The translations under genes were made by a program, and so were the position numbers. DNA of 64,000 bases from a virus (lineage: Duplodnaviria; Caudoviricetes), in the IMG/VR virus record IMGVR_UViG_3300002026_000124, positions 8,176-72,175 of that record; one strand, given 5' to 3'. The notes under the pieces were generated by a model. It saw only the letters and a program-made list of their open reading frames with translations. It made no database searches and had not been told where the DNA came from. How positions within the stretch are numbered: the stretch's first letter is position 1; each line of letters begins with the position of its first letter. Shown piece by piece: positions 8,052-62,257 of this stretch.

Positions 8052-8080
8052 AATATTTTCAATTTGTTATAAATACTAAT

Positions 8081-16255: not shown

Positions 16256-16330
16256 ATGAAAAATTTAGTAAACATACAACCCCAGCCGCAACAACATCCA
16301 AAAGATGGTGAATGGGAAAAGTTTGCTTAA
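16256..16330 (+). CDS. attenuator leader peptide 1 (Pro/Gln/His)
   Basis: MKNLVNIQPQPQQHPKDGEWEKFA*; QPQPQQHP core matches the downstream Pro/His/Gln tRNAs. Confidence 0.85.
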   Translation: MKNLVNIQPQPQQHPKDGEWEKFA

Positions 16331-16474: not shown

Positions 16475-16568
16475 CAGGAAGTGAGCGAGAGGTTGAAGCT
16501 ACTGGTCTTGGAAACCAGTCACGGCACAAAGGCGTTGTCGTGCGTGGGTTCGAACCCCACCTTCCTGA
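16475..16568 (+). tRNA. tRNA(TGG) with long variable arm
   Basis: CAGGAAG/CTTCCTG acceptor, CTGGT-CTTGGAA-ACCAG, about 25-nt variable arm. Confidence 0.8.
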
Positions 16569-16638
16569 CATGTGGACTGGTTAGAATTTACATACAAGGT
16601 CGTCCGTAATTGGAAATGATGCGTAGGAAATTCAACAT

Positions 16639-17125: not shown

Positions 17126-17242
17126 CAAAAAGTTTTTGGAAATCTTGTATTTATTATTATCTTTGCATAAATATTGCTGGTATAATAACACGTTGTTATA
17201 GAATAGTACACGATGCATACTATCGCCAACATTTTTTAATAT

Positions 17243-17890: not shown

Positions 17891-17980
17891 TTGTTTTTAA
17901 TGTCTTTGCAGCTTAAGTCCCAATCTTTTAAATAAAAGGATAGTATTTATATAAAATAAGTACATAATAAAATATCAATT

Positions 17981-19253: not shown

Positions 19254-19367
19254 ATGAAAAATTTACTCAACATATTATCAGTAGTCCTAGTGGATGCGCT
19301 CTTATGGGCAGCGGATGAGGATATGGTATATCGTGTCGGGTCGAAAGATACTGGAGTAGGTTATTAA
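19254..19367 (+). CDS. attenuator leader peptide 2 (Val/Leu/Asp/Ala/Trp/Glu/Met)
   Basis: MKNLLNILSVVLVDALLWAADEDMVYRVGSKDTGVGY*. Confidence 0.85.
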   Translation: MKNLLNILSVVLVDALLWAADEDMVYRVGSKDTGVGY

Positions 19368-21777: not shown

Positions 21778-21854
21778 GGGGCAGTAGTGACAATTGGCTA
21801 ACACGACAGATTTGCACTCTGTAAATGGGGTATCATACATCCCCTGCTCCACCA
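21778..21854 (+). tRNA. tRNA-Ala(TGC), aberrant T-loop
   Basis: G3:U70, A73, CCA; T-loop reads ATCATAC. Confidence 0.7.
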
Positions 21855-33173: not shown

Positions 33174-33455
33174 GGGGGCGACTTGGATTTGATTAGATGT
33201 CAGATTGGTAAAGTAAGCAAGTCTTAGTTGAATCAGACTAAGTAAAAAAGAGTGTTGAACTCGCAATGGTAGCGTAGGGAATAAACAAACCAACAAAAAC
33301 TTCTGGTGAAGTAAGTTATGAATAAGTGAGTAACGAATCCCGAAGAGAAACTAAAATGTAAACTATTCTATTTTGCTTGTTTAGAAAAACGAGATAAACT
33401 TGTAGAAAACCTATTAATCACATTTAAGACGAGGGTTCGAATCCCTCCGCTTCCA
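33174..33455 (+). ncRNA. ssrA: tmRNA
   Basis: 5' GGGGGCGACTTGGATTTGA; 3' GAGGG-TTCGAAT-CCCTC-CGCTTCC-A; G3:U70; internal tag ORF ending GEVSYE*. Confidence 0.88.
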
Positions 33456-33481
33456 CTTAATACATTAAAAATCAATTAGTT

Positions 33482-34557: not shown

Positions 34558-34646
34558 GGCGGGGTGGTGGAATTGGTAGACACGCTGGACTTAAAATCCA
34601 GTGGGCAGTAATGCCCGTGTGGGTTCGAGTCCCATCCCCGCTACCA
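34558..34646 (+). tRNA. tRNA-Leu(TAA)
   Basis: CTGGA-CTTAAAA-TCCAG, class II arm, CCA. Confidence 0.93.
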
Positions 34647-34661
34647 AAAATTAGAAAAATT

Positions 34662-34934
34662 ATGGCGAAATTAAAAGTGCCTGTGGATGTACTGTATGAA
34701 AAATGCAGGAAAGTCATTAATCATGAAATCCGAATTGAATCTCGTGAAGAAGCAAGAGAAATTATGCTACTTACTACAGAGAAGCATCGTAATGATTTCG
34801 TCAAATATCACCAACAGGACATGGGTAATATTTGTTGCATGGTTCTTGATGCAGCAAAGCAAGACTTGGTGAAAGAAGGAAAATTAGTTCTGAAACCCGA
34901 AGATAGTTTCGGACACCCATTAACATTTGAATAA
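34662..34934 (+). CDS. hypothetical protein
   Basis: Start reassigned to MAKLKVP, downstream of the tRNA. Confidence 0.55.
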   Translation: MAKLKVPVDVLYEKCRKVINHEIRIESREEAREIMLLTTEKHRNDFVKYHQQDMGNICCMVLDAAKQDLVKEGKLVLKPEDSFGHPLTFE

Positions 34935-35164
34935 TATGGCAATAATTTATTAAAAAAACTGTAAAGAAAAGACTATGATAGATATTAAAGCGGGTGAAGG
35001 TTTATGCGAATATATTCGAAGGGCAAATGGTATGAAAAAAGAAATATCGCAATTAAGTGACATACCAAAAATTGTAAATAGTGATAAAATTACAATTACT
35101 GGTGGTGCTGAATTTATTGGGAAATTTTTGAATGCGTTACCGGAAGAATATAAATAATTTTAAA

Positions 35165-35247
35165 GTCCTTGTGATGAAATTGGTAGCACGTGATAGTTTC
35201 AAAAACTATTGCCTTCGGGCGTGAGGGTTCGAGTCCCTCCAAGGACA
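35165..35247 (+). tRNA. tRNA-Leu(CAA)
   Basis: ATAGT-TTCAAAA-ACTAT, class II arm. Confidence 0.9.
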
Positions 35248-35323
35248 CTAATTTAATTAAAATTTAAAACGATGAAAGAAAAATTTAAAGTCTTGTAGGT
35301 TGCTCTAATGCGACTACAAGAAA

Positions 35324-35644
35324 ATGAGAGTAAAAACTATTTCAAAGACCACTACTAATCGTGGTGTATTCAATCGTGCGTATAAAGAACTTCTTGAACG
35401 CAAAGGTAGAATCCATTGTTCACGTTGCAAATACCATAAAGGTGAAAACTATGAAGGTAAATGGTATGGAGAATATATTTATGACGATATGAATACCTGT
35501 CGTGGTAAATCAGGAACTCATACAAAGTTACCAAATTGGAAACTTGTTTCAAAACAACCAAAACAATGGATGAAAAAACCCATCAAATTTGTTGATAAAC
35601 AATATGGTGGGTACAGGTACATTTACGTTGACATCAAATGGTGA
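35324..35644 (+). CDS. basic hypothetical protein
   Basis: CSRC motif, 106 aa. Confidence 0.55.
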   Translation: MRVKTISKTTTNRGVFNRAYKELLERKGRIHCSRCKYHKGENYEGKWYGEYIYDDMNTCRGKSGTHTKLPNWKLVSKQPKQWMKKPIKFVDKQYGGYRYIYVDIKW

Positions 35645-35655
35645 TGTCAACACAT

Positions 35656-35727
35656 TGCGAGTTAGCTTAGTGGTAAAGCATCACCTTCATAAAGTGGAGA
35701 CCGAGGGTTCGAGTCCCTCACTCGCAA
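35656..35727 (+). tRNA. tRNA(CAT), Met or Ile2
   Basis: Loop TTCATAA, canonical T arm. Confidence 0.82.
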
Positions 35728-35728
35728 C

Positions 35729-39503: not shown

Positions 39504-39583
39504 AAAATGTATTATTTATGTTTATATCATTAATTTTAACATAAATACTGTAACATAATCATAAATTATTCGTATAATTGCAC

Positions 39584-40675
39584 ATGAACTCATTTTTAGA
39601 AAAAGTCGATTGGAATGTATTAAATACATATATCGACAATAGCTTAATTATCTCAAACAAGCATCCAGAATATGATATTTGGATTCTTAATTATTCGCCA
39701 AAGGTTCAGTCTAAGAAATTTTGGGATGAATATACTTTGTCATGCCGTGGACTCGTTATTGATGCCGAAGGCAATATCTTAGCACGACCATTTCAAAAAT
39801 TCAAGAACTATGAAGAATATGACCCATCAGAATTCGATTGGTCTCAGGACTTCGATGTGTTTGAAAAAATGGATGGCTCATTAATTATCTTATTTTACTA
39901 CGAACCACGTATGGAATGGATAATTGCGTCAAGGGGTTCTTTCGCATCTGAACAAGCGATTGAAGGAAGAAAAATGATTGAGTCTAATACATATAATCAT
40001 TTAGACGTTAAAGAAACATATTTGTTCGAAATTCTGTATCCAGAAAATCGCATTGTTGTCGATTACGGTAATAGAAGAGAATTAGTATTATTAGGTAGAG
40101 TTAACACTTTAGATGGTTTTGAATTATATTATGACGATTTAGTTTCAATGCATTCAAAATATTTTACCGTTGTAAAGAAATTTAATATTAAGTCTTTCGT
40201 TGAATTAAGAGAATTGATAACTAAGGGTGAAGAAAACAAAGAAGGATTTGTAATTAGGTTTTACAGTGGTTTAAGAATTAAGATGAAATTTGCTGAATAT
40301 GTTAGACTACACGGAATCATAACAAATGTCTCAAATCTAGTTGTTTGGGAACATTTGAGAGACAAATATGAATTTGATGAATTGCTTGATAGAGTACCTG
40401 ACGAGTTTTATCAGTGGCTTAATAAAACAGTAGCAACATTAAATAATGAATTCTACAATATTGAGAGATTGGCGTTGAAGGAATTTATTAGGATTTATTA
40501 TAATGACGACACTGTTATTCGTAAAGATTTTGCAATGGAAGCACAAAAAAGTGCTTATCGTTCAATTTTATTTAAAATTTACGATAAAAATAGTTACGAT
40601 GAAATCATATGGAATATGATAAGACCTGAATATAGTAAACCATTTAAGGATGGTTATGTAGATGAAACTTTATGA
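39584..40675 (+). CDS. RNA ligase 1 (T4 Rnl1-like)
   Basis: CRGLV, EKMDGSL motif I, FEIL, EGFV, IKMKF. Confidence 0.88.
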   Translation: MNSFLEKVDWNVLNTYIDNSLIISNKHPEYDIWILNYSPKVQSKKFWDEYTLSCRGLVIDAEGNILARPFQKFKNYEEYDPSEFDWSQDFDVFEKMDGSLIILFYYEPRMEWIIASRGSFASEQAIEGRKMIESNTYNHLDVKETYLFEILYPENRIVVDYGNRRELVLLGRVNTLDGFELYYDDLVSMHSKYFTVVKKFNIKSFVELRELITKGEENKEGFVIRFYSGLRIKMKFAEYVRLHGIITNVSNLVVWEHLRDKYEFDELLDRVPDEFYQWLNKTVATLNNEFYNIERLALKEFIRIYYNDDTVIRKDFAMEAQKSAYRSILFKIYDKNSYDEIIWNMIRPEYSKPFKDGYVDETL

Positions 40676-41840: not shown

Positions 41841-43457
41841 ATGATACAAAAAACAAACACAGTTGCAAGTTGCACGTACACCTCTTCAGGTGACTATTCT
41901 ACTTACACGAAAAACAAAGCGTTCGATGGCAATTCTACTACTTATTGGGTCTCATTAAGTACCACTTCACCTAAAACTATTGGGATAACATTCCCATCAG
42001 TAAAGAAAATGGAATACTATGGAATAAAAATTAAGGACACTGCAAATTATTCTATTGAAGAAAATGCACCAGTATCGTGGACATTACAAGTATTGGAAGG
42101 TGGTTCATGGTATACAATACACGAAGTAGTTGATTATTCAGGATTCGTGAGCAATGTAGAATCATTATTCCCAATTCCTGCTTTATCTACGCATAAAAAT
42201 TATCAATTAGTAATCACCAAACAAAAGGGTTTAAGTAATCAAGTTATGATAACTGAAATTATTCTTTATGCTGATATGGATAAAATTGATACAAGTATTA
42301 ATGCCGTTTATTCTTCAAGCGGGGATTTTAGTGCAATATATAAAAAAGATTATGTTTTTGACAACTTTGTAACCCAAAATCAATGGGTATCTAGTTCATC
42401 TAGCACAAAATGGATACAGGTTGATTTAACTAAAGGAGTATTTCCTACAACGCTTGGTTATAGAGTAACTCGTTATGGAATTCTCCCAGGGAATGTTATT
42501 GAATATTTAGACCGTGCTCCAAAATCTTGGATATTGGAAGGTTATGTTGGTGGTGCTTGGGTTAAACTTGATGAAGTTACTGGATTTGATTCAGAAGATT
42601 TTGCAGATGATACTGAAGAACAATTTATAGTTGGTAATCCTAAGTTTGCAACTAAATATAGATTAACCATTACAGAAACTAACGGTGCTCCTGTAGTAAG
42701 TTTAAGAGCATTTACATTATATGAACAACCAAATTTTGGCAATTTAGTTGGCGTTGGTAATGCAATTGTTAGTGGAATACCAAAACCTTTAATTTGTTGG
42801 ATGCCAGAAACTCAACTTACATATACAACATTACAGGTAATTAGAAAAGTATATAGTAATGAAACAGTTATTGCTACATTCCCTTATGCAGATAGAATGA
42901 AAGTTAAATCCTTTATTGACTCAACATATACCAATAATGGTCAAACATATCCTGCTACGTATTGGATTAAATTACTTGGATGCTCTGATGGACAAACACA
43001 TGAAAGTATTCGTATTGAACCAAGCAGAATTGTTTCAACACCTACGTTCAATGGTACTGATTATATTTATACAGTTAGTTCTCCAATTCTTTATTCAATT
43101 GGTGGTATTGAAATACATAATAGATTTAATAATGTTCAAAGTGTTACACTTATAAGTGGTTCAACAACGATGAATTCATCTGGGTCAACACAAATTTATG
43201 GAAGTACTACCGTAAAAACTTCAAATGATAAGAAATCTTCATCAACAAGTACTGTTAGCTCAAAATCAAACATACCTGTAGATAAGTTAGCTGCGAGTAC
43301 ACATAATACTTCAAGGTCGAATAGACAATCCACTACTGTTAGTACACATAATACTTCAAGGTCGAATAGACAGTCAACTACTGTTAGTTCAAGCCATGCT
43401 CCAAGAGGTCCTTATGTACACAGTCTCTCAAACTTAGAAGATAATAGATTAGAATAA
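41841..43457 (+). CDS. discoidin (F5/8 type C) domain virion protein
   Basis: Two AFDG...W / P-x-SW-x-L domains; Ser/Thr-rich tail; late motif 41810-41817. Confidence 0.75.
   Translation: MIQKTNTVASCTYTSSGDYSTYTKNKAFDGNSTTYWVSLSTTSPKTIGITFPSVKKMEYYGIKIKDTANYSIEENAPVSWTLQVLEGGSWYTIHEVVDYSGFVSNVESLFPIPALSTHKNYQLVITKQKGLSNQVMITEIILYADMDKIDTSINAVYSSSGDFSAIYKKDYVFDNFVTQNQWVSSSSSTKWIQVDLTKGVFPTTLGYRVTRYGILPGNVIEYLDRAPKSWILEGYVGGAWVKLDEVTGFDSEDFADDTEEQFIVGNPKFATKYRLTITETNGAPVVSLRAFTLYEQPNFGNLVGVGNAIVSGIPKPLICWMPETQLTYTTLQVIRKVYSNETVIATFPYADRMKVKSFIDSTYTNNGQTYPATYWIKLLGCSDGQTHESIRIEPSRIVSTPTFNGTDYIYTVSSPILYSIGGIEIHNRFNNVQSVTLISGSTTMNSSGSTQIYGSTTVKTSNDKKSSSTSTVSSKSNIPVDKLAASTHNTSRSNRQSTTVSTHNTSRSNRQSTTVSSSHAPRGPYVHSLSNLEDNRLE
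43296..43385 (+). repeat. 45-nt in-frame tandem duplication
   Basis: STHNTSRSNRQSTTV twice. Confidence 0.9.
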
Positions 43458-43607
43458 ACTAAGTTAATTAAATAAAATGGGAAGCATGCTTCCCATTTTT
43501 TATTTAATTAAAAATAATTACAAGTTTTTGTAACATTTACTTGTTTTATTCGTATTTATGTCTTTACTTTGCACTCAGAAATCAAAACATATTAAAAAAT
43601 TAAAGCA

Positions 43608-43700
43608 ATGAAAATTTTTGGCACATATTATTACGGTAAAAAATCTTATAAGAAACATCTTACGAGAATCGGGAATGTTATGTCCAAAAAGCAAAAATAA
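43608..43700 (+). CDS. attenuator leader peptide 3 (Tyr/Lys)
   Basis: MKIFGTYYYGKKSYKKHLTRIGNVMSKKQK*. Confidence 0.85.
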   Translation: MKIFGTYYYGKKSYKKHLTRIGNVMSKKQK

Positions 43701-43726
43701 GCAATGATTTTTGCATAAAGCACAGA

Positions 43727-43755
43727 GACCCGATTCGAAAGATTCGGGTTTTTTT
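43727..43755 (+). terminator. attenuator terminator 3
   Basis: ACCCGATTC-GAAA-GATTCGGGT plus T-run; competing GAATCGGG at 43666-43673. Confidence 0.85.
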
Positions 43756-43762
43756 GTTTTTA

Positions 43763-43836
43763 GACCTCTTAGCTCAATTGGTAGATGCACCACCCTTTTA
43801 AGGTGGGGGTTCTGGGTTCAAGTCCCAGAGGGGTCA
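43763..43836 (+). tRNA. tRNA-Lys(TTT)
   Basis: CCACC-CTTTTAA-GGTGG. Confidence 0.88.
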
Positions 43837-43841
43837 CAAAT

Positions 43842-43931
43842 GAGAGTACGGCAACGAGTGGTGTTGCGCAGAGGCGCATAATCTCTGTCCCAGTGGGGTG
43901 AACATAGGTGGTTCGAATCCATCTGCTCTCA
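43842..43931 (+). tRNA. tRNA(CAT) with long variable arm and G33
   Basis: AGAGG-CGCATAA-TCTCT; about 20-nt variable region. Confidence 0.7.
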
Positions 43932-43936
43932 CAAAT

Positions 43937-44017
43937 GCCAGTATTGAACAGGTGGTGAGTTTAAGACTCTGTAAAAGTCTCGCTTCGGCTGTGTAGGTTC
44001 GATTCCTGCTGCTGGCA
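43937..44017 (+). tRNA. tRNA-Tyr(GTA)
   Basis: AGACT-CTGTAAA-AGTCT. Confidence 0.88.
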
Positions 44018-44071
44018 CTTACGGTAGAGTTTAGGCAATTTCTGTACCCAACGTAACTGAAATATCCATAC

Positions 44072-44142
44072 GCACCCGTAGCAAAGGGGATATGCCTCTG
44101 GCTTTTAACCAGATGACACAGGTTCGATTCCTGTCGGGTGCA
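44072..44142 (+). tRNA. tRNA-Lys(TTT)
   Basis: TCTGG-CTTTTAA-CCAGA. Confidence 0.88.
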
Positions 44143-44197
44143 CTTTTAGGGTTTTTTACTACTTTTTAAGTCCAATGTCCCAATAAAAAGTAGACAA

Positions 44198-44282
44198 GTA
44201 TTCGTAGCAAAGTGGTTATGCTCCTGCCTTTTAAGCAGAGTGTCTAAACAACACAACGTGGGTTCGATTCCCACCGAATACA
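44198..44282 (+). tRNA. tRNA-Lys(TTT) with long variable arm
   Basis: CTGC-CTTTTAA-GCAG; variable hairpin GTGT-CTAAACA-ACAC. Confidence 0.82.
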
Positions 44283-44287
44283 CAAAT

Positions 44288-44370
44288 GGACAGGTGGGTG
44301 AGTGGTTAAAACCGCCAGACTGTAAATCTGGTAGCTTCGGCTTTCGGGGGTTCGAATCCCTCCCTGTCCA
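44288..44370 (+). tRNA. tRNA-Tyr(GTA)
   Basis: CCAGA-CTGTAAA-TCTGG. Confidence 0.93.
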
Positions 44371-44383
44371 CAAATATATGATT

Positions 44384-44620
44384 ATGGAAACACTAAAAGA
44401 AATTGTGAATGGAACTATGGCTAAACTAAGCCATATATGCAATGGTAAAGCGTATTATAGAATTGATAATGAGAATCATTCTTATCAACTTGAAATTAAT
44501 TGCAATGATGCTGAATGGAAAGATGTGTATATCTATCCTGAAATCAAAGCAATTACATTAATGAGGTGGATACGCAAGGGTATTGAAAAACAGGATGACA
44601 CATTCATCGTGTTGAAATAG
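44384..44620 (+). CDS. hypothetical protein
   Basis: Start reassigned to METLKEIV. Confidence 0.55.
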   Translation: METLKEIVNGTMAKLSHICNGKAYYRIDNENHSYQLEINCNDAEWKDVYIYPEIKAITLMRWIRKGIEKQDDTFIVLK

Positions 44621-44626
44621 GCTCAA

Positions 44627-44698
44627 GCACTCGTGGCAGAATGGCGATGCTACTCCCTCTTAAGGAGACCAATAGGGGTTCGATTCCCTTCGGGTGCA
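44627..44698 (+). tRNA. tRNA-Lys(CTT)
   Basis: CTCC-CTCTTAA-GGAG. Confidence 0.85.
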
Positions 44699-44703
44699 CA
44701 ATT

Positions 44704-45210
44704 TTATTCTACAAAGTCTTCGTAATACCGAATCAATTGGTTCTCGGTTTCAAAGTACCTGATTTTATCATTATCTGGTGTATAATTAACCATTTCTCTG
44801 CCTTTAATTACTAATCCATCATATCCTAATCTTAACATTTCATCATTAACATTTGTGTTTGTATCAAAATCTCTTTTCGCATCAAAATAATCGTCAATTC
44901 CCTTTTCTCTACCATAATTCATCGCAAGTCGTTGTATAAACATTTCAGCATCATTCAAAGTATTAACAATTTTTGGATGTTTCGGTATTGCTCCGACAAC
45001 AAAATATACTTTACCATACTTTCTTGCTAATCCACGATTACTTAATGCTGCGGTATATAGACCCTGACCAAATGAAGCCATTCCATTATTTTCTTTACCT
45101 AATTCTTGGACACCTCTAATAGTTACATTTTGTCTTTTCCACCTGAGATATTCAGATTGATTAAAATTATTGATTTCCTCATTAATAATTTTAGCGATAT
45201 TATCATTCAT
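44704..45210 (-). CDS. putative ADP-ribosyltransferase-like protein with INEEI leader
   Basis: R...GQGLY...A-x-x-YG...GYDG...E pattern resembles ART-fold domains; inference. Confidence 0.4.
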   Translation of the reverse strand: MNDNIAKIINEEINNFNQSEYLRWKRQNVTIRGVQELGKENNGMASFGQGLYTAALSNRGLARKYGKVYFVVGAIPKHPKIVNTLNDAEMFIQRLAMNYGREKGIDDYFDAKRDFDTNTNVNDEMLRLGYDGLVIKGREMVNYTPDNDKIRYFETENQLIRYYEDFVE

Positions 45211-54014: not shown

Positions 54015-54143
54015 ATGAAATCACAAGTATCCAATATTAACATTTCGTCAACGATTAATAGTCGTAATGGAGAAAGTATATTCTGTTCAAGTTTTACAGG
54101 CAGAAATATAGCGGATACGGGTTCAGGATTTTTATCGTGTTGA
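54015..54143 (+). CDS. attenuator leader peptide 4 (Ser/Asn/Ile/Thr/Phe/Cys/Gly/Arg)
   Basis: MKSQVSNINISSTINSRNGESIFCSSFTGRNIADTGSGFLSC*. Confidence 0.85.
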   Translation: MKSQVSNINISSTINSRNGESIFCSSFTGRNIADTGSGFLSC

Positions 54144-55358: not shown

Positions 55359-55397
55359 CACTATTTAATTGGAAATTGGGTAGAATATTTAAAAAAA

Positions 55398-55482
55398 GGA
55401 GGGGGGACAGGATGGTAATGTGCCTGTTTGCTAAACAGAGGCTGGGATAATACCCAAGAGTGGTCGGTACACTCTCTCTCCG
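55398..55482 (+). tRNA. tRNA-Ser(GCT), aberrant T-loop
   Basis: Loop TTGCTAA; T arm GAGTG-GTCGGTA-CACTC. Confidence 0.75.
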
Positions 55483-55483
55483 C

Positions 55484-55930
55484 AAAAAAGGTTAGTAATC
55501 CAGAAGCCTAACCAGCCGAAGGGTGAAGTTTCCTTAATGAAATTGATACAAACAAGCACCTGTGGTGGGATTGCAATGTGTTGATAAATTAGTTAAAAAC
55601 TCATTTCGACTTTAATATTGGAACATGAAGATTTATGGTGCACCTTATCTTCTGGAAGGTTCGAAACCTTTGGAGTCGGCTAGAATCACATGCAGTGGAT
55701 ATCATCATGTGGTTTGTGCACCAAAAAAGAAGTCATGACTCTTTGAGGTGTAAAAGTTCTGGGATGCATAAGAGGCTGACCTAATGTTCTGTTGGAATTT
55801 GAGTGTTAGTAGATTTATTTACACGTACTTGGCAATACGATTAACACGATAGTTCTCCGAGACATTTTAAGTTACCTGCAATGGTATTCGGGAGACGTGA
55901 GTAGAAGGCTCACCCCAGAACTTATTTTTA
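55484..55930 (+). ncRNA. candidate large structured ncRNA
   Basis: No long ORF; long-range helices 55754-63/55914-23 and 55636-43/55716-23. Confidence 0.45.
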
Positions 55931-55932
55931 AT

Positions 55933-56729: not shown

Positions 56730-56818
56730 GGGAGTGTAGCTGATTAGGCTTTAGCTGCAGACTGTTAATCTGTGAATGAAAAATTGAAATAAAGTAGGTT
56801 CGAATCCTTCCTCTCCCG
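56730..56818 (+). tRNA. tRNA-Asn(GTT) with 20-nt A-rich variable region
   Basis: GCAGA-CTGTTAA-TCTGT, G73. Confidence 0.78.
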
Positions 56819-56856
56819 CTCTAAATAATTGCAATATTCTTCGTATTTATGTTGGA

Positions 56857-60009: not shown

Positions 60010-60092
60010 GCCGATGTGGTTCAGGGGTCGACAACGCCAGTCTTGTAAACTGGAGACGTAAGTCCGCGCTGGTTCGAATCCAGCCATCGGCT
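60010..60092 (+). tRNA. tRNA-Thr(TGT) with long variable arm
   Basis: CCAGT-CTTGTAA-ACTGG; variable hairpin GAC-GTAA-GTC. Confidence 0.85.
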
Positions 60093-60133
60093 CTCTAAAA
60101 ATAACTTTATTAATACAAATAACATGGAAAGCG

Positions 60134-60355
60134 ATGAAGGTAAGCAGAGAAAAAACAGCAACCTTGTTTCTATTCTTAGGAACATTTTTCAACCCATTGG
60201 GTTACGATGCAGCTCTAAAGTGGCTGATGGACACAACAGGCAGTTATTGGTTTTCAATTTCTATTTTTTACCTTGTATCGCTGTCTTGTTTTATATCTTA
60301 CTTTGTATTAGCTAAGATAAACCCTTTTAAAATTTTTACAAGAAAAAGGAATTAA
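60134..60355 (+). CDS. small membrane protein
   Basis: Two hydrophobic segments. Confidence 0.5.
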   Translation: MKVSREKTATLFLFLGTFFNPLGYDAALKWLMDTTGSYWFSISIFYLVSLSCFISYFVLAKINPFKIFTRKRN

Positions 60356-60387
60356 TGTTGGAAATTAATTCCCTTTTTATTACATTT

Positions 60388-60459
60388 GCCCTTATAGTAT
60401 AACGGATAATACAGAGGTCTTCTAAACCACAGATTGGGGTTCGATTCCCCGTAGGGGTA
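60388..60459 (+). tRNA. tRNA-Arg(TCT)
   Basis: Loop CTTCTAA, A20. Confidence 0.85.
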
Positions 60460-60478
60460 CTATCTTAAATTTAAAACA

Positions 60479-60661
60479 ATGAATAGAGTAAAAATTACGA
60501 TTAATGTCGACAGCGAAAAAGAATTAACTGAGAAAGAAATTGTTGAAGCAATGGTTAATTTTAAATATCGCTTAGAAGGATACACCACCGAGTCTCCTGA
60601 ATTTTTATCTAATGCTGAAATTAGTATTGATAAAAAATATGTTATAACAACACTCTCATAG
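60479..60661 (+). CDS. hypothetical protein
   Basis: 60 aa ORF between tRNAs. Confidence 0.45.
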   Translation: MNRVKITINVDSEKELTEKEIVEAMVNFKYRLEGYTTESPEFLSNAEISIDKKYVITTLS

Positions 60662-60723
60662 TTCAACGGATAGAATTGGAGTTTCCTAAACTTTAGACAC
60701 AGGTTCGATTCCTGTTGGGAGTA
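60652..60723 (+). tRNA. tRNA-Arg(CCT)
   Basis: Loop TTCCTAA, A20. Confidence 0.85.
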
Positions 60724-60738
60724 CAAAAAAATGTTATT

Positions 60739-61119
60739 ATGATTAGATTTTTAAATAAAAACGATAAAAAGGAGCTAAACAATTTAATAAAAATTGCTCT
60801 TAATGAAAAAATGTTTATTGTAAAAAAGAAAAATCATCATTTCTTCGGCTATTTTGAAGACAATAAATTAGTTGGCGTTGTTGGATTTTTTACAATGAAA
60901 AGATTTAAAACTATTGGTTTTGTAAGTGCATTTGTTTTACCCGAATATCGTGGAAAGGGTATTTATGATAAACTTTCGAAAGAAAGATTGGAATATTGTC
61001 AACAACATTATAACGGTTTTATCATATTTATAACAACAAATGATAAAAGCAGACCACAGATGGAAAAAATTGGTTTTAAATTGATTGAACATCAATATAG
61101 AATGTATTTAAATATTTAA
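60739..61119 (+). CDS. GNAT acetyltransferase
   Basis: FVLPEYRGKGIY motif A. Confidence 0.85.
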   Translation: MIRFLNKNDKKELNNLIKIALNEKMFIVKKKNHHFFGYFEDNKLVGVVGFFTMKRFKTIGFVSAFVLPEYRGKGIYDKLSKERLEYCQQHYNGFIIFITTNDKSRPQMEKIGFKLIEHQYRMYLNI

Positions 61120-61124
61120 CAATT

Positions 61125-61197
61125 GCCCTTGTAATTCAACGGATAGAATGCTTGGTTTCGACCCAAGTCGTTGCGGGTTCGAGTCCTGCCGAGGGTA
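61125..61197 (+). tRNA. tRNA-Arg(TCG)
   Basis: CTTGG-TTTCGAC-CCAAG. Confidence 0.9.
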
Positions 61198-61203
61198 CAA
61201 AAT

Positions 61204-61278
61204 ACACTTGTGGCGCAATTGGATTAGCGCAATTGATTACGAATCAATAGGTTGGGGGTTCGAATCCCTTCAGGTGTA
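61204..61278 (+). tRNA. tRNA-Arg(ACG)
   Basis: ATTGA-TTACGAA-TCAAT. Confidence 0.9.
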
Positions 61279-61287
61279 CTAATATGA

Positions 61288-61536
61288 ATGAAAATGAAAA
61301 AGTTAAAAACTAATATCTTAAAAAAGATTAATCAGAGAGTCCGTATTGTAAAAAACGGAGAATCTTTTGAAGTTCAAAGTAGAAAATCTGATATTGGAAA
61401 TTGGATTGGTATAAGTACTTTTGCCTCCCATCGAAAAGCATTAGATAAAAAGCATAACTATATAGTTATGATAGTGTTGAGGGATTTAGGATTTCGTTCT
61501 GAATTTGCTAACAGAAGAAAAAAAAGGAAAGGATGA
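61288..61536 (+). CDS. basic hypothetical protein
   Basis: 82 aa ORF. Confidence 0.5.
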   Translation: MKMKKLKTNILKKINQRVRIVKNGESFEVQSRKSDIGNWIGISTFASHRKALDKKHNYIVMIVLRDLGFRSEFANRRKKRKG

Positions 61537-61760
61537 AAAAGGAAAGGGTTATTGTAATATATGCCGATACATGGGATAATTTATGTGTTGAAATGCTAGG
61601 TTATTATCATGACCATTGCCGACATTATTATGCCGGATTAACCACCGAAACTCCCAAACACTTACAGGATTTAATTAAAGAGGAAAAAAATTATGTCTTT
61701 CTTTGCGAAGAAGACGAACCATATAAAGTCAATAATATGAAAAATTTTAATAGTTCTTAG
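61533..61760 (+). CDS. hypothetical protein
   Basis: 75 aa ORF. Confidence 0.5.
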   Translation: MKKERVIVIYADTWDNLCVEMLGYYHDHCRHYYAGLTTETPKHLQDLIKEEKNYVFLCEEDEPYKVNNMKNFNSS

Positions 61761-61786
61761 TTTGCCACTCTTGGTAAATTAAGATT

Positions 61787-61993
61787 ATGGTAGCTTTAAA
61801 AAAGAAGACCAAAAAACCACCAATGAAATATTGGTTGGTTGAACTCACCCTTACGAGTGGCAGAGTTCGAACATTTTATGTAAAAGCAAGAACAGAGTTT
61901 GATGCCTATAATAAGGCAGATTATTATGCTAGTCTTGCAAGTAACAAACAATTATTTGACTTGACAACATCTGAATTTAGATTGTTGTCATAA
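61787..61993 (+). CDS. hypothetical protein
   Basis: 68 aa ORF. Confidence 0.5.
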   Translation: MVALKKKTKKPPMKYWLVELTLTSGRVRTFYVKARTEFDAYNKADYYASLASNKQLFDLTTSEFRLLS

Positions 61994-62045
61994 ACACCGC
62001 AGGGTGGATGTAACTCCTAAAATCGTTATATTCACCCTGCTCCAT

Positions 62046-62116
62046 GCGTCTGTCGTTTAATGGATAGGACAGTCCCGTTCAAGGGATGTGTGGGGGTTCG
62101 AATCCCTCCGGATGCA
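62046..62116 (+). tRNA. tRNA with 6-nt anticodon loop (TTC or TCA)
   Basis: GTCCC-GTTCAA-GGGAT; Glu-like D-stem; canonical T arm. Confidence 0.65.
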
Positions 62117-62123
62117 CAATATT

Positions 62124-62199
62124 GCGGGATAGGTGTAAGTGGTTGCATGTCTGCTTGCCAAGCAGAAGGACTTAGAGAGTTCGACTCTCTCATCCCGCA
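62124..62199 (+). tRNA. tRNA-Gly(GCC)
   Basis: TCTGC-TTGCCAA-GCAGA; A73 and 8-nt variable region are atypical. Confidence 0.78.
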
Positions 62200-62257
62200 C
62201 AAATAAGTTCGAAAATCTTTTTTCGCATTTTTTTAGTATTTATGTTAAATAAATATT

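Follow-up and report, generated by a model that had tools for sequence, protein, structure and literature searches.

A probable leader-peptide attenuator with Tyr and Lys codons ahead of the tRNA-Lys and tRNA-Tyr genes of a giant phage

Multivalent leader-peptide attenuators are known from enterobacteria, such as those of thr (Thr + Ile) and ilvGMEDA (Ile/Leu/Val), and attenuators of the same kind include trpL, hisL, leuL and pheL. The pheM leader attenuator controls E. coli pheST, the phenylalanyl-tRNA synthetase. T4 Rnl1 is the enzyme that repairs tRNA-Lys cut by PrrC. To our knowledge, little has been established on how phage tRNA genes are controlled; their expression is usually assumed to be constitutive or temporal. 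A literature search on leader-peptide attenuation of tRNA genes returned no paper. A search on jumbo-phage tRNA genes likewise gave nothing on leader-peptide control, and a paper on related large Bacteroidota phages did not mention such control of tRNA genes.

The locus described here lies in a 64,000-nt stretch of phage DNA (the window), and its contig is a giant-phage fragment with Bacteroidota-type promoters. The window contains four leader modules (16256-16330, 19254-19367, 43608-43700 and 54015-54143), of which the third is the Tyr/Lys module. This module resembles the enterobacterial attenuators in its short leader ORF, its clustered codons for more than one amino acid, its intrinsic terminator, and a segment past the codons that pairs with the terminator 5' arm. 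As in those systems, a stalled ribosome would select the antiterminator, and the switch would be kinetic, with the terminator more stable at equilibrium. We think it probable that the module is a transcription attenuator of the ribosome-mediated (leader-peptide) kind, standing as a gate before four tRNA-Lys and two tRNA-Tyr genes and adjusting the phage tRNA supply to demand. This reading draws on parts, complementarity, conservation and a codon-tRNA match that are directly observed. The sequence-only reading had placed such an architecture ahead of the Lys/Tyr cluster, and leader ORF, sensor codons, antiterminator and terminator were all found in that order. The features of the module and its upstream flank are as follows.

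39578-40675: gene for a T4 Rnl1-type RNA ligase, 3 kb upstream of the Tyr/Lys module
41841-43457: tail-protein gene (ORF) upstream of the module, with a match to PHROG tail proteins
43474-43499, no strand assigned: bidirectional terminator hairpin (11-bp stem and T-run) that closes the tail-protein gene
43540-43571, plus strand: host-type promoter-like site (CTTG, 20 nt, TTACTTTG) with the Bacteroidota -33/-7 layout and one mismatch per box
43552-43559, plus strand: GTATTTAT motif within the promoter spacer
43608-43700, plus strand: leader ORF of 30 codons, with its ATG in an A-rich context without a Shine-Dalgarno sequence
43626-43655, plus strand: sensor codons 7-16 (YYYGKKSYKK; 4 Tyr, 4 Lys), from the ORF translation
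43666-43673, plus strand: antiterminator strand (region 2) GAATCGGG, inside the leader ORF; duplex of -14.2 kcal/mol
43691-43714, plus strand: small hairpin holding the leader stop codon (43698-43700), inside the loop closed by the antiterminator helix
43726-43761, plus strand: intrinsic terminator (5' arm 43726-43736, GAAA loop 43737-43740, 3' arm 43741-43751, T-tract 43749-43761)

The leader core YYYGKKSYKK is present as had been read from the letters, and Tyr or Lys occupies eight of its ten codons. The Lys + Tyr share of the whole leader is 41%. Across the contig's 349 short ORFs this share averages 12% (sd 8%), and only 1/349 reaches 41%.

The hairpin at 43474-43499 shields the Tyr/Lys module from upstream transcription. 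The promoter letters quoted in the sequence-only reading were all found: TGTAAC (43529-43534), CGTATTTA (43551-43558) and TTACTTTG (43564-43571). Its view that this promoter differs from the others is right for the single mismatch in each box (CTTG and TTACTTTG), but the layout is the same Bacteroidota-type TTTG-N19-21-TAnnTTTG. Exact TTTG-N18-21-TAnnTTTG sites stand ahead of modules 1, 2 and 4, and the relatives of module 3 carry canonical boxes at the corresponding position. CGTATTTA is part of the GTATTTAT motif. This motif recurs in modules 1 and 2 and stands before many other genes of the phage, so that it may be a promoter element specific to the phage; GTATTTA[TG] has 42 copies on the contig, 24 of them no more than 80 nt upstream of an ORF start. 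The stretch 43763-44700 contains no exact host-type promoter and a terminator stands before the first tRNA, so transcription from upstream must pass that terminator.

The 8-bp complementarity noticed earlier is perfect: GAATCGGG (43666-43673) pairs with CCCGATTC (43729-43736) in the terminator 5' arm. An 8-nt complement to this arm was given by 14 of 2000 dinucleotide shuffles of the ORF. The terminator hairpin consists of CCCGATTC, the GAAA loop and GATTCGGG, with one U.U mismatch, and is followed by T7-G-T5. Its energy is approximately -13 kcal/mol, and the terminator ends 2 nt before the first tRNA-Lys gene. ARAGORN and Rfam agree on three Lys(UUU), one Lys(CUU) and two Tyr(GUA) tRNAs within 43763-44699. 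The block reads as follows.

43763-43837, plus strand: tRNA-Lys (UUU), ARAGORN and Rfam
43842-43930, plus strand: can fold as a tRNA-like cloverleaf whose extra arm is long and whose anticodon loop contains CAU; no tRNA call
43937-44018, plus strand: tRNA-Tyr (GUA), ARAGORN and Rfam
44072-44143, plus strand: tRNA-Lys (UUU), ARAGORN and Rfam
44198-44283, plus strand: tRNA-Lys (UUU) with a 13-nt variable-region insertion, ARAGORN and Rfam
44288-44371, plus strand: tRNA-Tyr (GUA), ARAGORN and Rfam
44378-44620, plus strand: 80-codon ORF inside the cluster, no Pfam family
44627-44699, plus strand: tRNA-Lys (CUU), last gene of the unit, ARAGORN and Rfam

The four Lys and two Tyr tRNAs claimed earlier are thus in place, but the additional CAT tRNA was called neither by ARAGORN nor by Rfam at E<=1. 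A convergent minus-strand gene comes after tRNA-Lys (CUU).

From this arrangement we infer leader translation, stalling and a kinetic switch of the following kind. Transcription would begin at the promoter (about 43540-43571), and ribosomes would translate the 30-codon leader. While the Tyr/Lys codons are decoded fast, the ribosome would run over GAATCGGG, which would be covered or refolded with the upstream leader. With GAATCGGG unavailable, the terminator hairpin (43726-43751) would form, and the polymerase would halt at the T-tract just before the first tRNA. When charged tRNA-Tyr or tRNA-Lys is scarce, the ribosome would stall on codons 7-15 and leave GAATCGGG free. The free strand would pair with the emerging terminator 5' arm, no terminator would form, and the polymerase would read through into the tRNA genes. 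Because the products would be the very tRNAs that relieve the stall, the circuit would act as negative feedback on the phage tRNA supply.

Equilibrium folding of the full leader with masks was tried as a switch test and discarded; the terminator was never removed. Since the full-length RNA at equilibrium always forms the terminator, the switch must be kinetic, as in trp. In place of the equilibrium test, the nascent transcript up to but not including the 3' arm was folded with ribosome masks. In this model, the predicted probability of the antiterminator in the window's Tyr/Lys leader was 0.02 without a ribosome, 0.93-0.99 with the ribosome A site on codons 1-15, and 0.00 with the A site on codons 16-26. 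A ribosome at the last codons or the stop codon leaves the antiterminator uncovered (model P ~0.93); the distance from the antiterminator to the stop codon is 25 nt in the window and 13-34 nt in the relatives. The modelled geometry of the stalled ribosome fits a leader-peptide attenuator switch, save at these last codons. The upstream sequestering pairing (region 1:2) varied, with an antiterminator probability of 0.02 in the window, 0.00 in one relative and 0.95 in another.

In other metagenomic phages the Tyr/Lys module occurs in nine distinct versions. Downstream of each, ARAGORN called Lys and Tyr tRNAs only, with only Lys in two records. All nine distinct relatives retain the ATG and the frame; the indels inside the ORF are 3, 3 and 6 nt long. 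Eight of the nine versions have four Tyr, though one Tyr shifts between positions 9 and 10, and Tyr + Lys within the first 16-17 residues number 7 in eight versions and 9 in the window; this conservation of the leader was partly imposed by the search patterns used to find the relatives. Variation is spread roughly evenly over codon positions 1, 2 and 3 (9, 7 and 5 of 24), so the leader peptide itself is apparently not under selection. This is expected of a leader, yet it is no independent proof of translation. The helix between the antiterminator and the terminator 5' arm is paired in 100% of cells across the nine relatives, and the terminator in 97%, with one compensatory change from A-U to C-G. 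Covariation within the family is weak (one compensatory pair; 10/500 shuffles reach the observed score) because the sequences are too alike and the key helices almost invariant. A motif 3' of the leader stop codon is kept in most relatives. The pairing of the hairpin at 43691-43714 is poorly conserved, and a second mini-ORF that starts in it does not keep its length. A search for related loci through the neighbouring tail-protein gene found none.

A DNA search of 50,697 deposited phage genomes gave no near relative, with matches to tRNA genes only, and the terminase has at most 28% identity to Flavobacterium phage proteins. There is therefore no cultured model at hand. Among public sequencing runs, the stretch is well represented in microbial-mat DNA runs only; runs with a small share of it were left out of habitat claims. 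One contig from an RNA library spans 43677-43840 without a mismatch, extending through the terminator as far as tRNA-Lys; in the same run the flanking protein genes are uncovered. The contig is a weak hint of read-through, and DNA carry-over is possible.

The other three tRNA blocks of the window, Pro/His/Gln, Asp/Glu/Val/Leu/Met/Trp and Thr/Cys/Ile/Ser/Asn/Phe/Gly, stand behind the same design, and the four blocks together cover most amino acids. When leader composition was compared with the leader's own block, the true assignment ranked 1 of 24 permutations (55% vs. 43% for the next). Each of the leaders of modules 1-4 is rare by itself among the short ORFs (9, 8, 1 and 5 of 349). Orthologous modules were located by reading upstream of tRNA blocks, and the own-block assignment likewise ranked first in three records of related phages, one of them a complete genome of 334 kb. 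There, the Val run and the internal Met are gone from the module-2 leader, with one Val left inside the antiterminator, and the module-2 block lacks both Val and Met tRNAs. In module 4 of the same genome, the leader shows added Arg and Met codons, and the block has Arg and Met tRNAs. In 12/13 modules examined, the terminator sequence is the module's own and has a 7-9-nt complement to match within the final third of the ORF. Such module-specific pairs amount to covariation between paralogues and orthologues. Module-1 DNA used as a query for relatives gave chance matches only.

The Tyr/Lys circuit would then belong to a set of four parallel modules, with the amino acids shared out over their four tRNA blocks. 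We tentatively extend this to the idea that the attenuators jointly watch over the tRNA pool across the whole code, each sensing slow decoding of one codon class and switching on the matching tRNA block alone; on present evidence we lean against so wide a claim. If it were true, the phage would detect tRNAs removed by an anticodon nuclease or host shut-off and answer selectively. The Lys/Tyr module would be its arm against the most commonly attacked tRNAs, and the Rnl1-type ligase its repair arm.

The same device may also be read, in line with the anti-defence role suggested by the sequence-only reading, as an inducible counter-defence, triggered when host tRNA-Lys or tRNA-Tyr is cut by anticodon nucleases like PrrC, PARIS AriB or retron PtuAB. 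The switching on of replacement tRNAs only under attack is plausible, but we think this reading rather doubtful. What the sequence-only reading stated about nuclease targets agrees with two reports: PARIS AriB cuts host tRNA-Lys (PMC11464382), Retron-Eco7 PtuAB degrades tRNA-Tyr, and phage tRNA-Lys counters PrrC (PMC11555353). Phage tRNAs are also reported to rescue infection (PMC11464382, PMC11555353). Across the nine relatives, Lys and Tyr form a separate two-amino-acid unit, with the two Lys-only records noted above. The four Lys tRNAs are diverse (70% mean column identity, different anticodon stems, one with an inserted arm), but their anticodon loops are canonical. The Rnl1-type ligase gene, which lies near the module in one relative too, is the only contextual hint. 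Lys and Tyr codons are very frequent at the genome GC content of 33%, which alone could explain a separate high-demand unit. Lys/Tyr is also not singled out, as the same design stands ahead of the other three tRNA blocks. Since one design gates all four blocks, general supply control is a simpler reading than a dedicated anti-defence.

Another explanation is a general sensor of translation capacity or timing, in which any slowing or failure of leader translation leaves the antiterminator free and opens the tRNA block and codon bias tunes the sensitivity only. Host shut-off, ribosome hibernation and late infection are candidate triggers. In the folding model, a stall anywhere on codons 1-15 has the same outcome, and the untranslated leader is predicted to antiterminate by default in most modules (P 0.83-1.0 in 8/12). 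The untranslated Tyr/Lys leader of the window is predicted to terminate, however, and such a sensor leaves unexplained why each leader carries the amino acids of its own block and why leader changes track block content between genomes. We judge it unlikely.

The absence of any regulation, with a leaky terminator behind a chance ORF or a small independent peptide gene and the tRNAs supplied by constitutive read-through, is already disfavoured and very improbable. Short ORFs with a high content of Lys, Tyr, Asn and Ile are indeed common in AT-rich DNA, and the terminator has a mismatch and modest stability. Against this stand the joint rarity of four codon-matched ORFs (~2.5e-8) and of four matching antiterminator segments (~1e-6), the frame, start codon and Tyr/Lys count conserved in the relatives, and the constant association of the leader with Lys and Tyr tRNAs (Lys only in the two records).

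Rfam leader families (Trp, His, Leu, Thr) and the T-box covariance model gave no match at the gathering score on the window, nor at E<=1 on 43500-44720. Rfam gave no match on the 570-nt non-coding stretch 55360-55932. Least credible of all is a translation-independent RNA switch with an incidental ORF, bound by uncharged tRNA (T-box-like), a protein or a small molecule: the leader RNA is strongly structured (z = -7.0 for the 163-nt fold) and has the conserved motif after the stop codon, but no Rfam family was found on the leader at E<=1 (one sub-threshold sRNA match is on the opposite strand), the leader has only ~150 nt without specifier-loop or T-box-like features, its conserved ATG and in-frame indels indicate translation, and it is hard to see how one fold would sense the 2-8 different tRNAs of the various modules.

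If the leader-peptide attenuator is real, it would sense its own product tRNAs, and no feedback on tRNA supply yet described would be more direct. It would extend textbook attenuation from amino-acid synthesis to the decoding machinery, and it would mean that a virus keeps watch on translation separately for each codon class. The module connects tRNA-targeting immunity with conditional phage counter-measures in a way that can be tested. Being small (~230 nt) and self-contained, it could be used as a Bacteroidota reporter of decoding speed at chosen codons.

Among the known systems, T-box riboswitches are alike in that tRNA status chooses between terminator and antiterminator ahead of translation-related genes, but they bind uncharged tRNA directly without a ribosome, whereas the phage leader is an ORF without a T-box model match. 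Like the counter-defence tRNAs of T5 and other phages (Lys against PARIS/PrrC; Tyr against retron-Eco7; PMC11464382, PMC11555353), the Lys and Tyr tRNAs gated here could replace depleted host tRNAs. The available parts of those reports mention no leader ORF or attenuator (PMC11464382, PMC11555353), while expression appears conditional here. The pheM attenuator is similar in that leader-peptide attenuation sets a part of the translation machinery according to how much charged tRNA is present; it differs in controlling a protein (the synthetase), in sensing a single amino acid and in being chromosomal.

Unlike the enterobacterial attenuators, the phage design is phage-borne and present in four copies, each with a different amino-acid set. 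The phage leader stop codon lies well past the antiterminator, and the upstream anti-antiterminator pairing of the phage modules is inconsistent. The promoter and start context are of the Bacteroidota type without a Shine-Dalgarno sequence, and the leader matches no Rfam leader family. The enterobacterial attenuators regulate biosynthetic enzymes, whereas the phage module would regulate tRNAs, and sensor and product would thereby close a direct loop.

The Tyr/Lys module is probably a leader-peptide attenuator, a reading that is well supported by its anatomy, by statistics and by comparison with relatives. Its parts follow one another in this order:

43474-99: bidirectional terminator, which ends the upstream tail-protein gene
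43540-71: promoter-like site, CTTG followed by 20 nt and TTACTTTG
43608-43700: leader ORF of 30 codons, its ATG within an A-rich context; codons 7-16 read YYYGKKSYKK
43666-73: antiterminator strand GAATCGGG, within the leader ORF, the perfect complement of CCCGATTC
43729-36: CCCGATTC, the 5′ arm of the terminator hairpin, which has a GAAA loop and one U.U mismatch
43763: start of tRNA-Lys, the first of the block

The computed fold of the terminator hairpin was approximately −13 kcal/mol, and T7-G-T5 follows it directly, reaching 43761. The 163-nt leader was much more structured than its shuffles (z = −7.0). ARAGORN and Rfam agreed on the tRNAs up to 44699, which were three Lys(UUU), one Lys(CUU) and two Tyr(GUA); a convergent gene begins beyond the block end. 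The sequence-only reading had reported the leader core, the 8-nt complement and a block of four Lys, two Tyr and one CAT tRNA, and all of this was confirmed except the CAT tRNA. At 43842-43930, neither ARAGORN nor Rfam called a tRNA, and only a cloverleaf-like fold with a long extra arm was present. This element (+ strand) has CAU in the anticodon loop and a G at the expected U33 position.

Three further tRNA blocks in the window showed the same part order of promoter, short ORF, terminator-arm complement late in the ORF, terminator and tRNAs. Their leaders were as follows:

16256-16330: module 1 leader, core QPQPQQHP; block of Pro, His and Gln tRNAs
19254-19367: module 2 leader, Val/Leu/Asp/Ala/Trp/Glu/Met core; block of Asp, Glu, Met, Val, Leu and Trp tRNAs
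54015-54143: module 4 leader, Ser/Asn/Ile/Thr/Phe/Cys/Gly core; block of tRNAs for these seven amino acids and no others

For modules 1-4, the share of leader residues matched by a tRNA of the leader's own block was 0.35, 0.53, 0.41 and 0.78, values reached by 9, 8, 1 and 5 of 349 short ORFs of the AT-rich contig. The true leader-block pairing ranked first of 24 permutations in the window, and it was the best permutation in 4/4 records. The terminator sequence differs in each module, and the last third of each ORF holds its own 7-8-nt complement, with shuffle frequencies of 0.029, 0.068, 0.007 and 0.092 (modules 1-4). Two tRNA groups behind protein genes, at 34558-35728 (Leu, Leu, Met) and 60010-62200 (Thr, four Arg, Gly), had no leader/terminator module of their own; not all phage tRNAs would be gated.

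Relatives were retrieved from viral and metagenomic contigs with two DNA patterns from the leader, which in part impose the conservation seen within the Tyr/Lys family. Nine distinct versions of the module were found. By ARAGORN, only Lys and Tyr tRNAs followed the terminator in all nine, with Lys alone called in two records. One of these is a complete 334-kb genome, in which the next gene scored above the Rfam tRNA cut-off and has, by our own reading, a GUA anticodon loop. The alignment kept the ATG, and indels within the ORF were 3, 3 and 6 nt, whereas gap lengths 3′ of the stop codon were arbitrary. Leader Tyr count was four in 8/9 versions, although one Tyr lies at position 9 in some and 10 in others; Tyr plus Lys among the first 16-17 residues numbered seven in eight versions and nine in the window. 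All 72 cells of the antiterminator helix were paired, one version using a G.U pair. For the terminator 97% of cells were paired, and one A-U to C-G change there was compensatory. Strong covariation within this family is lacking because the sequences are too alike.

Better evidence of co-variation comes from a wider set of 13 modules, the window's four plus orthologues in three further records, of which 12 carried in the ORF a 7-9-nt complement of their own, differing terminator arm. Leader composition follows the content of the tRNA block. Module 2 of the 334-kb genome has a leader without the Val run or any internal Met codon, one Val being left inside the antiterminator, and a block without Val and Met tRNAs. 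Module 4 of this genome combines a leader containing four Arg and three Met codons, the start codon among them, with a block that includes tRNAs for Arg and Met.

Right after the leader stop codon (43698-43712), 8/9 relatives have TAA, then GCAATGA or AAGTAATGA, then CTT; the pairing of a hairpin around this motif was not conserved in the alignment of Tyr/Lys relatives. The inter-tRNA spacers 44019-44071 and 44144-44197 were conserved in a related phage stretch (L001, 3113-3164 and 2990-3040), yet its protein adjoining the block was only 61% identical. One conserved spacer contains an inverted repeat. These spacers may act as signals for processing or be small RNAs.

In computed folds of the full leader, the terminator always formed, regardless of the mask, so the decision must be kinetic. 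The classic trp attenuator likewise forms its terminator at equilibrium. We folded the transcript as it stands just before synthesis of the 3′ arm, with a ribosome mask extending from 15 nt behind the A-site codon to 13 nt ahead of it. Without a ribosome, the antiterminator had a probability of 0.02, as its strand is taken up by pairing with the upstream Tyr/Lys-codon region. Placing the A site at each of codons 1-15 gave 0.93-0.99, codons 16-26 gave 0.00, and the last four codons or the stop codon gave approximately 0.93. The first three predictions are what an attenuator would require, and the last is a weakness of the model. A ribosome waiting on the stop codon leaves the antiterminator uncovered, since that codon lies 25 nt farther downstream (13-34 nt in relatives). 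Termination would then have to come from refolding of the antiterminator with the upstream strand, or from a ribosome sitting between both partners. The predicted upstream sequestering pairing was not uniform across relatives and modules; what all versions of the design would share is thus that a ribosome moving on occludes the antiterminator, while one stalled upstream leaves it exposed.

Exact TTTG-N18-21-TAnnTTTG sites, which have the Bacteroidota promoter layout, numbered 9 against 3.5 expected, and head 3/4 modules. An exact host-type site also lies within block 1 at 17135-17165 (+), before the last tRNA-Gln, which may therefore escape attenuator 1. The motif (A)GTATTTAT has 42 copies on the contig, for example at 17943, 41810, 56843 and 62236 (+) and at 8076, 9492 and 15955 (−). 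It stands 6-63 nt, often about 15 nt, upstream of 24 ORF starts, and each of the four attenuator promoters has it inside or close by; it may be a phage-specific promoter alongside the host-type one. Public runs holding the stretch well were microbial-mat DNA only. In an oligo-dT RNA library, a single contig matched 43677-43840 exactly, bridging the terminator into tRNA-Lys, with zero cover on the flanking protein genes in the same run; it hints weakly at read-through RNA.

The window makes up the greater part of a virus record of 72 kb (33% GC), and its genes include those for a large terminase, a tail protein and a ribonucleotide reductase. Judging by two related records, a 102-kb fragment estimated to cover 31% of its genome and the complete 334-kb genome, it is a piece of a giant phage. 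The closest deposited phages are Flavobacterium phages (terminase identity 28%). ARAGORN called 47 tRNAs, all on one strand and one without assignable anticodon, and Rfam added one at 21778-21851. The call at 62046-62117 has an anomalous two-base anticodon, and in the 102-kb record (G001, the source of L001) ARAGORN called a tRNA at 77514-77586 (−) whose anticodon, CUA, reads amber. Many tRNAs of normally short-variable-loop classes were 82-95 nt long, such as Pro (95 nt, 16475-16569), Asn (90 nt, 56730-56819) and Lys(UUU) (86 nt, 44198-44283, with a 13-nt insertion in the variable region); the extra length may represent extra arms or introns. Between tRNA-Ser and tRNA-Asn, 570 nt at 55360-55932 (+) appeared by eye more G+C-rich than their surroundings, with no ORF of at least 150 codons, no Rfam match and a fold z-score of only −1.5. 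L001:2600-2915, between terminator and first tRNA, partly resembles it by eye. Two other features were annotated:

33174-33458, + strand: tmRNA (Rfam RF00023, 69.5 bits), within the phage tRNA region
39578-40675, + strand: T4 Rnl1-type RNA ligase gene (PF09511, E 3e-20), with a C-5 cytosine DNA methylase next

L001 also has an Rnl1-type ligase gene near its Lys/Tyr module.

The simplest reading of the module is feedback control of tRNA supply, since the operon makes the very tRNAs that, when scarce, would stall the ribosome. The sequence-only reading proposed a dedicated anti-defence purpose, which we consider plausible but less likely. Nucleases are proven to attack tRNA-Lys and tRNA-Tyr, and infection is rescued by phage tRNAs (PMC11464382, PMC11555353), with which such a purpose is compatible; the diversity of the four Lys tRNAs and the ligase gene 3 kb upstream also favor it. 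However, all four blocks share an identical design, and high Lys/Tyr codon use is expected at 33% GC, so nothing singles out defence.

The leader matched no family in Rfam. Full-text literature searches on leader-peptide attenuation with phage or viral tRNA genes, clusters, arrays or operons yielded no account of such control, nor did a search on jumbo-phage tRNA genes; one article on related Bacteroidota phages of 293-331 kb gives tRNA counts and does not mention leaders or attenuation. By mechanism, the phage module is of the same kind as multivalent leader-peptide attenuators, and its equilibrium terminator is like that of trp. Compared with known attenuators, what is new is that the regulated genes are tRNAs, which makes a direct loop between sensor and product, that the carrier is a phage, and that the amino acids are divided four-fold among modules.
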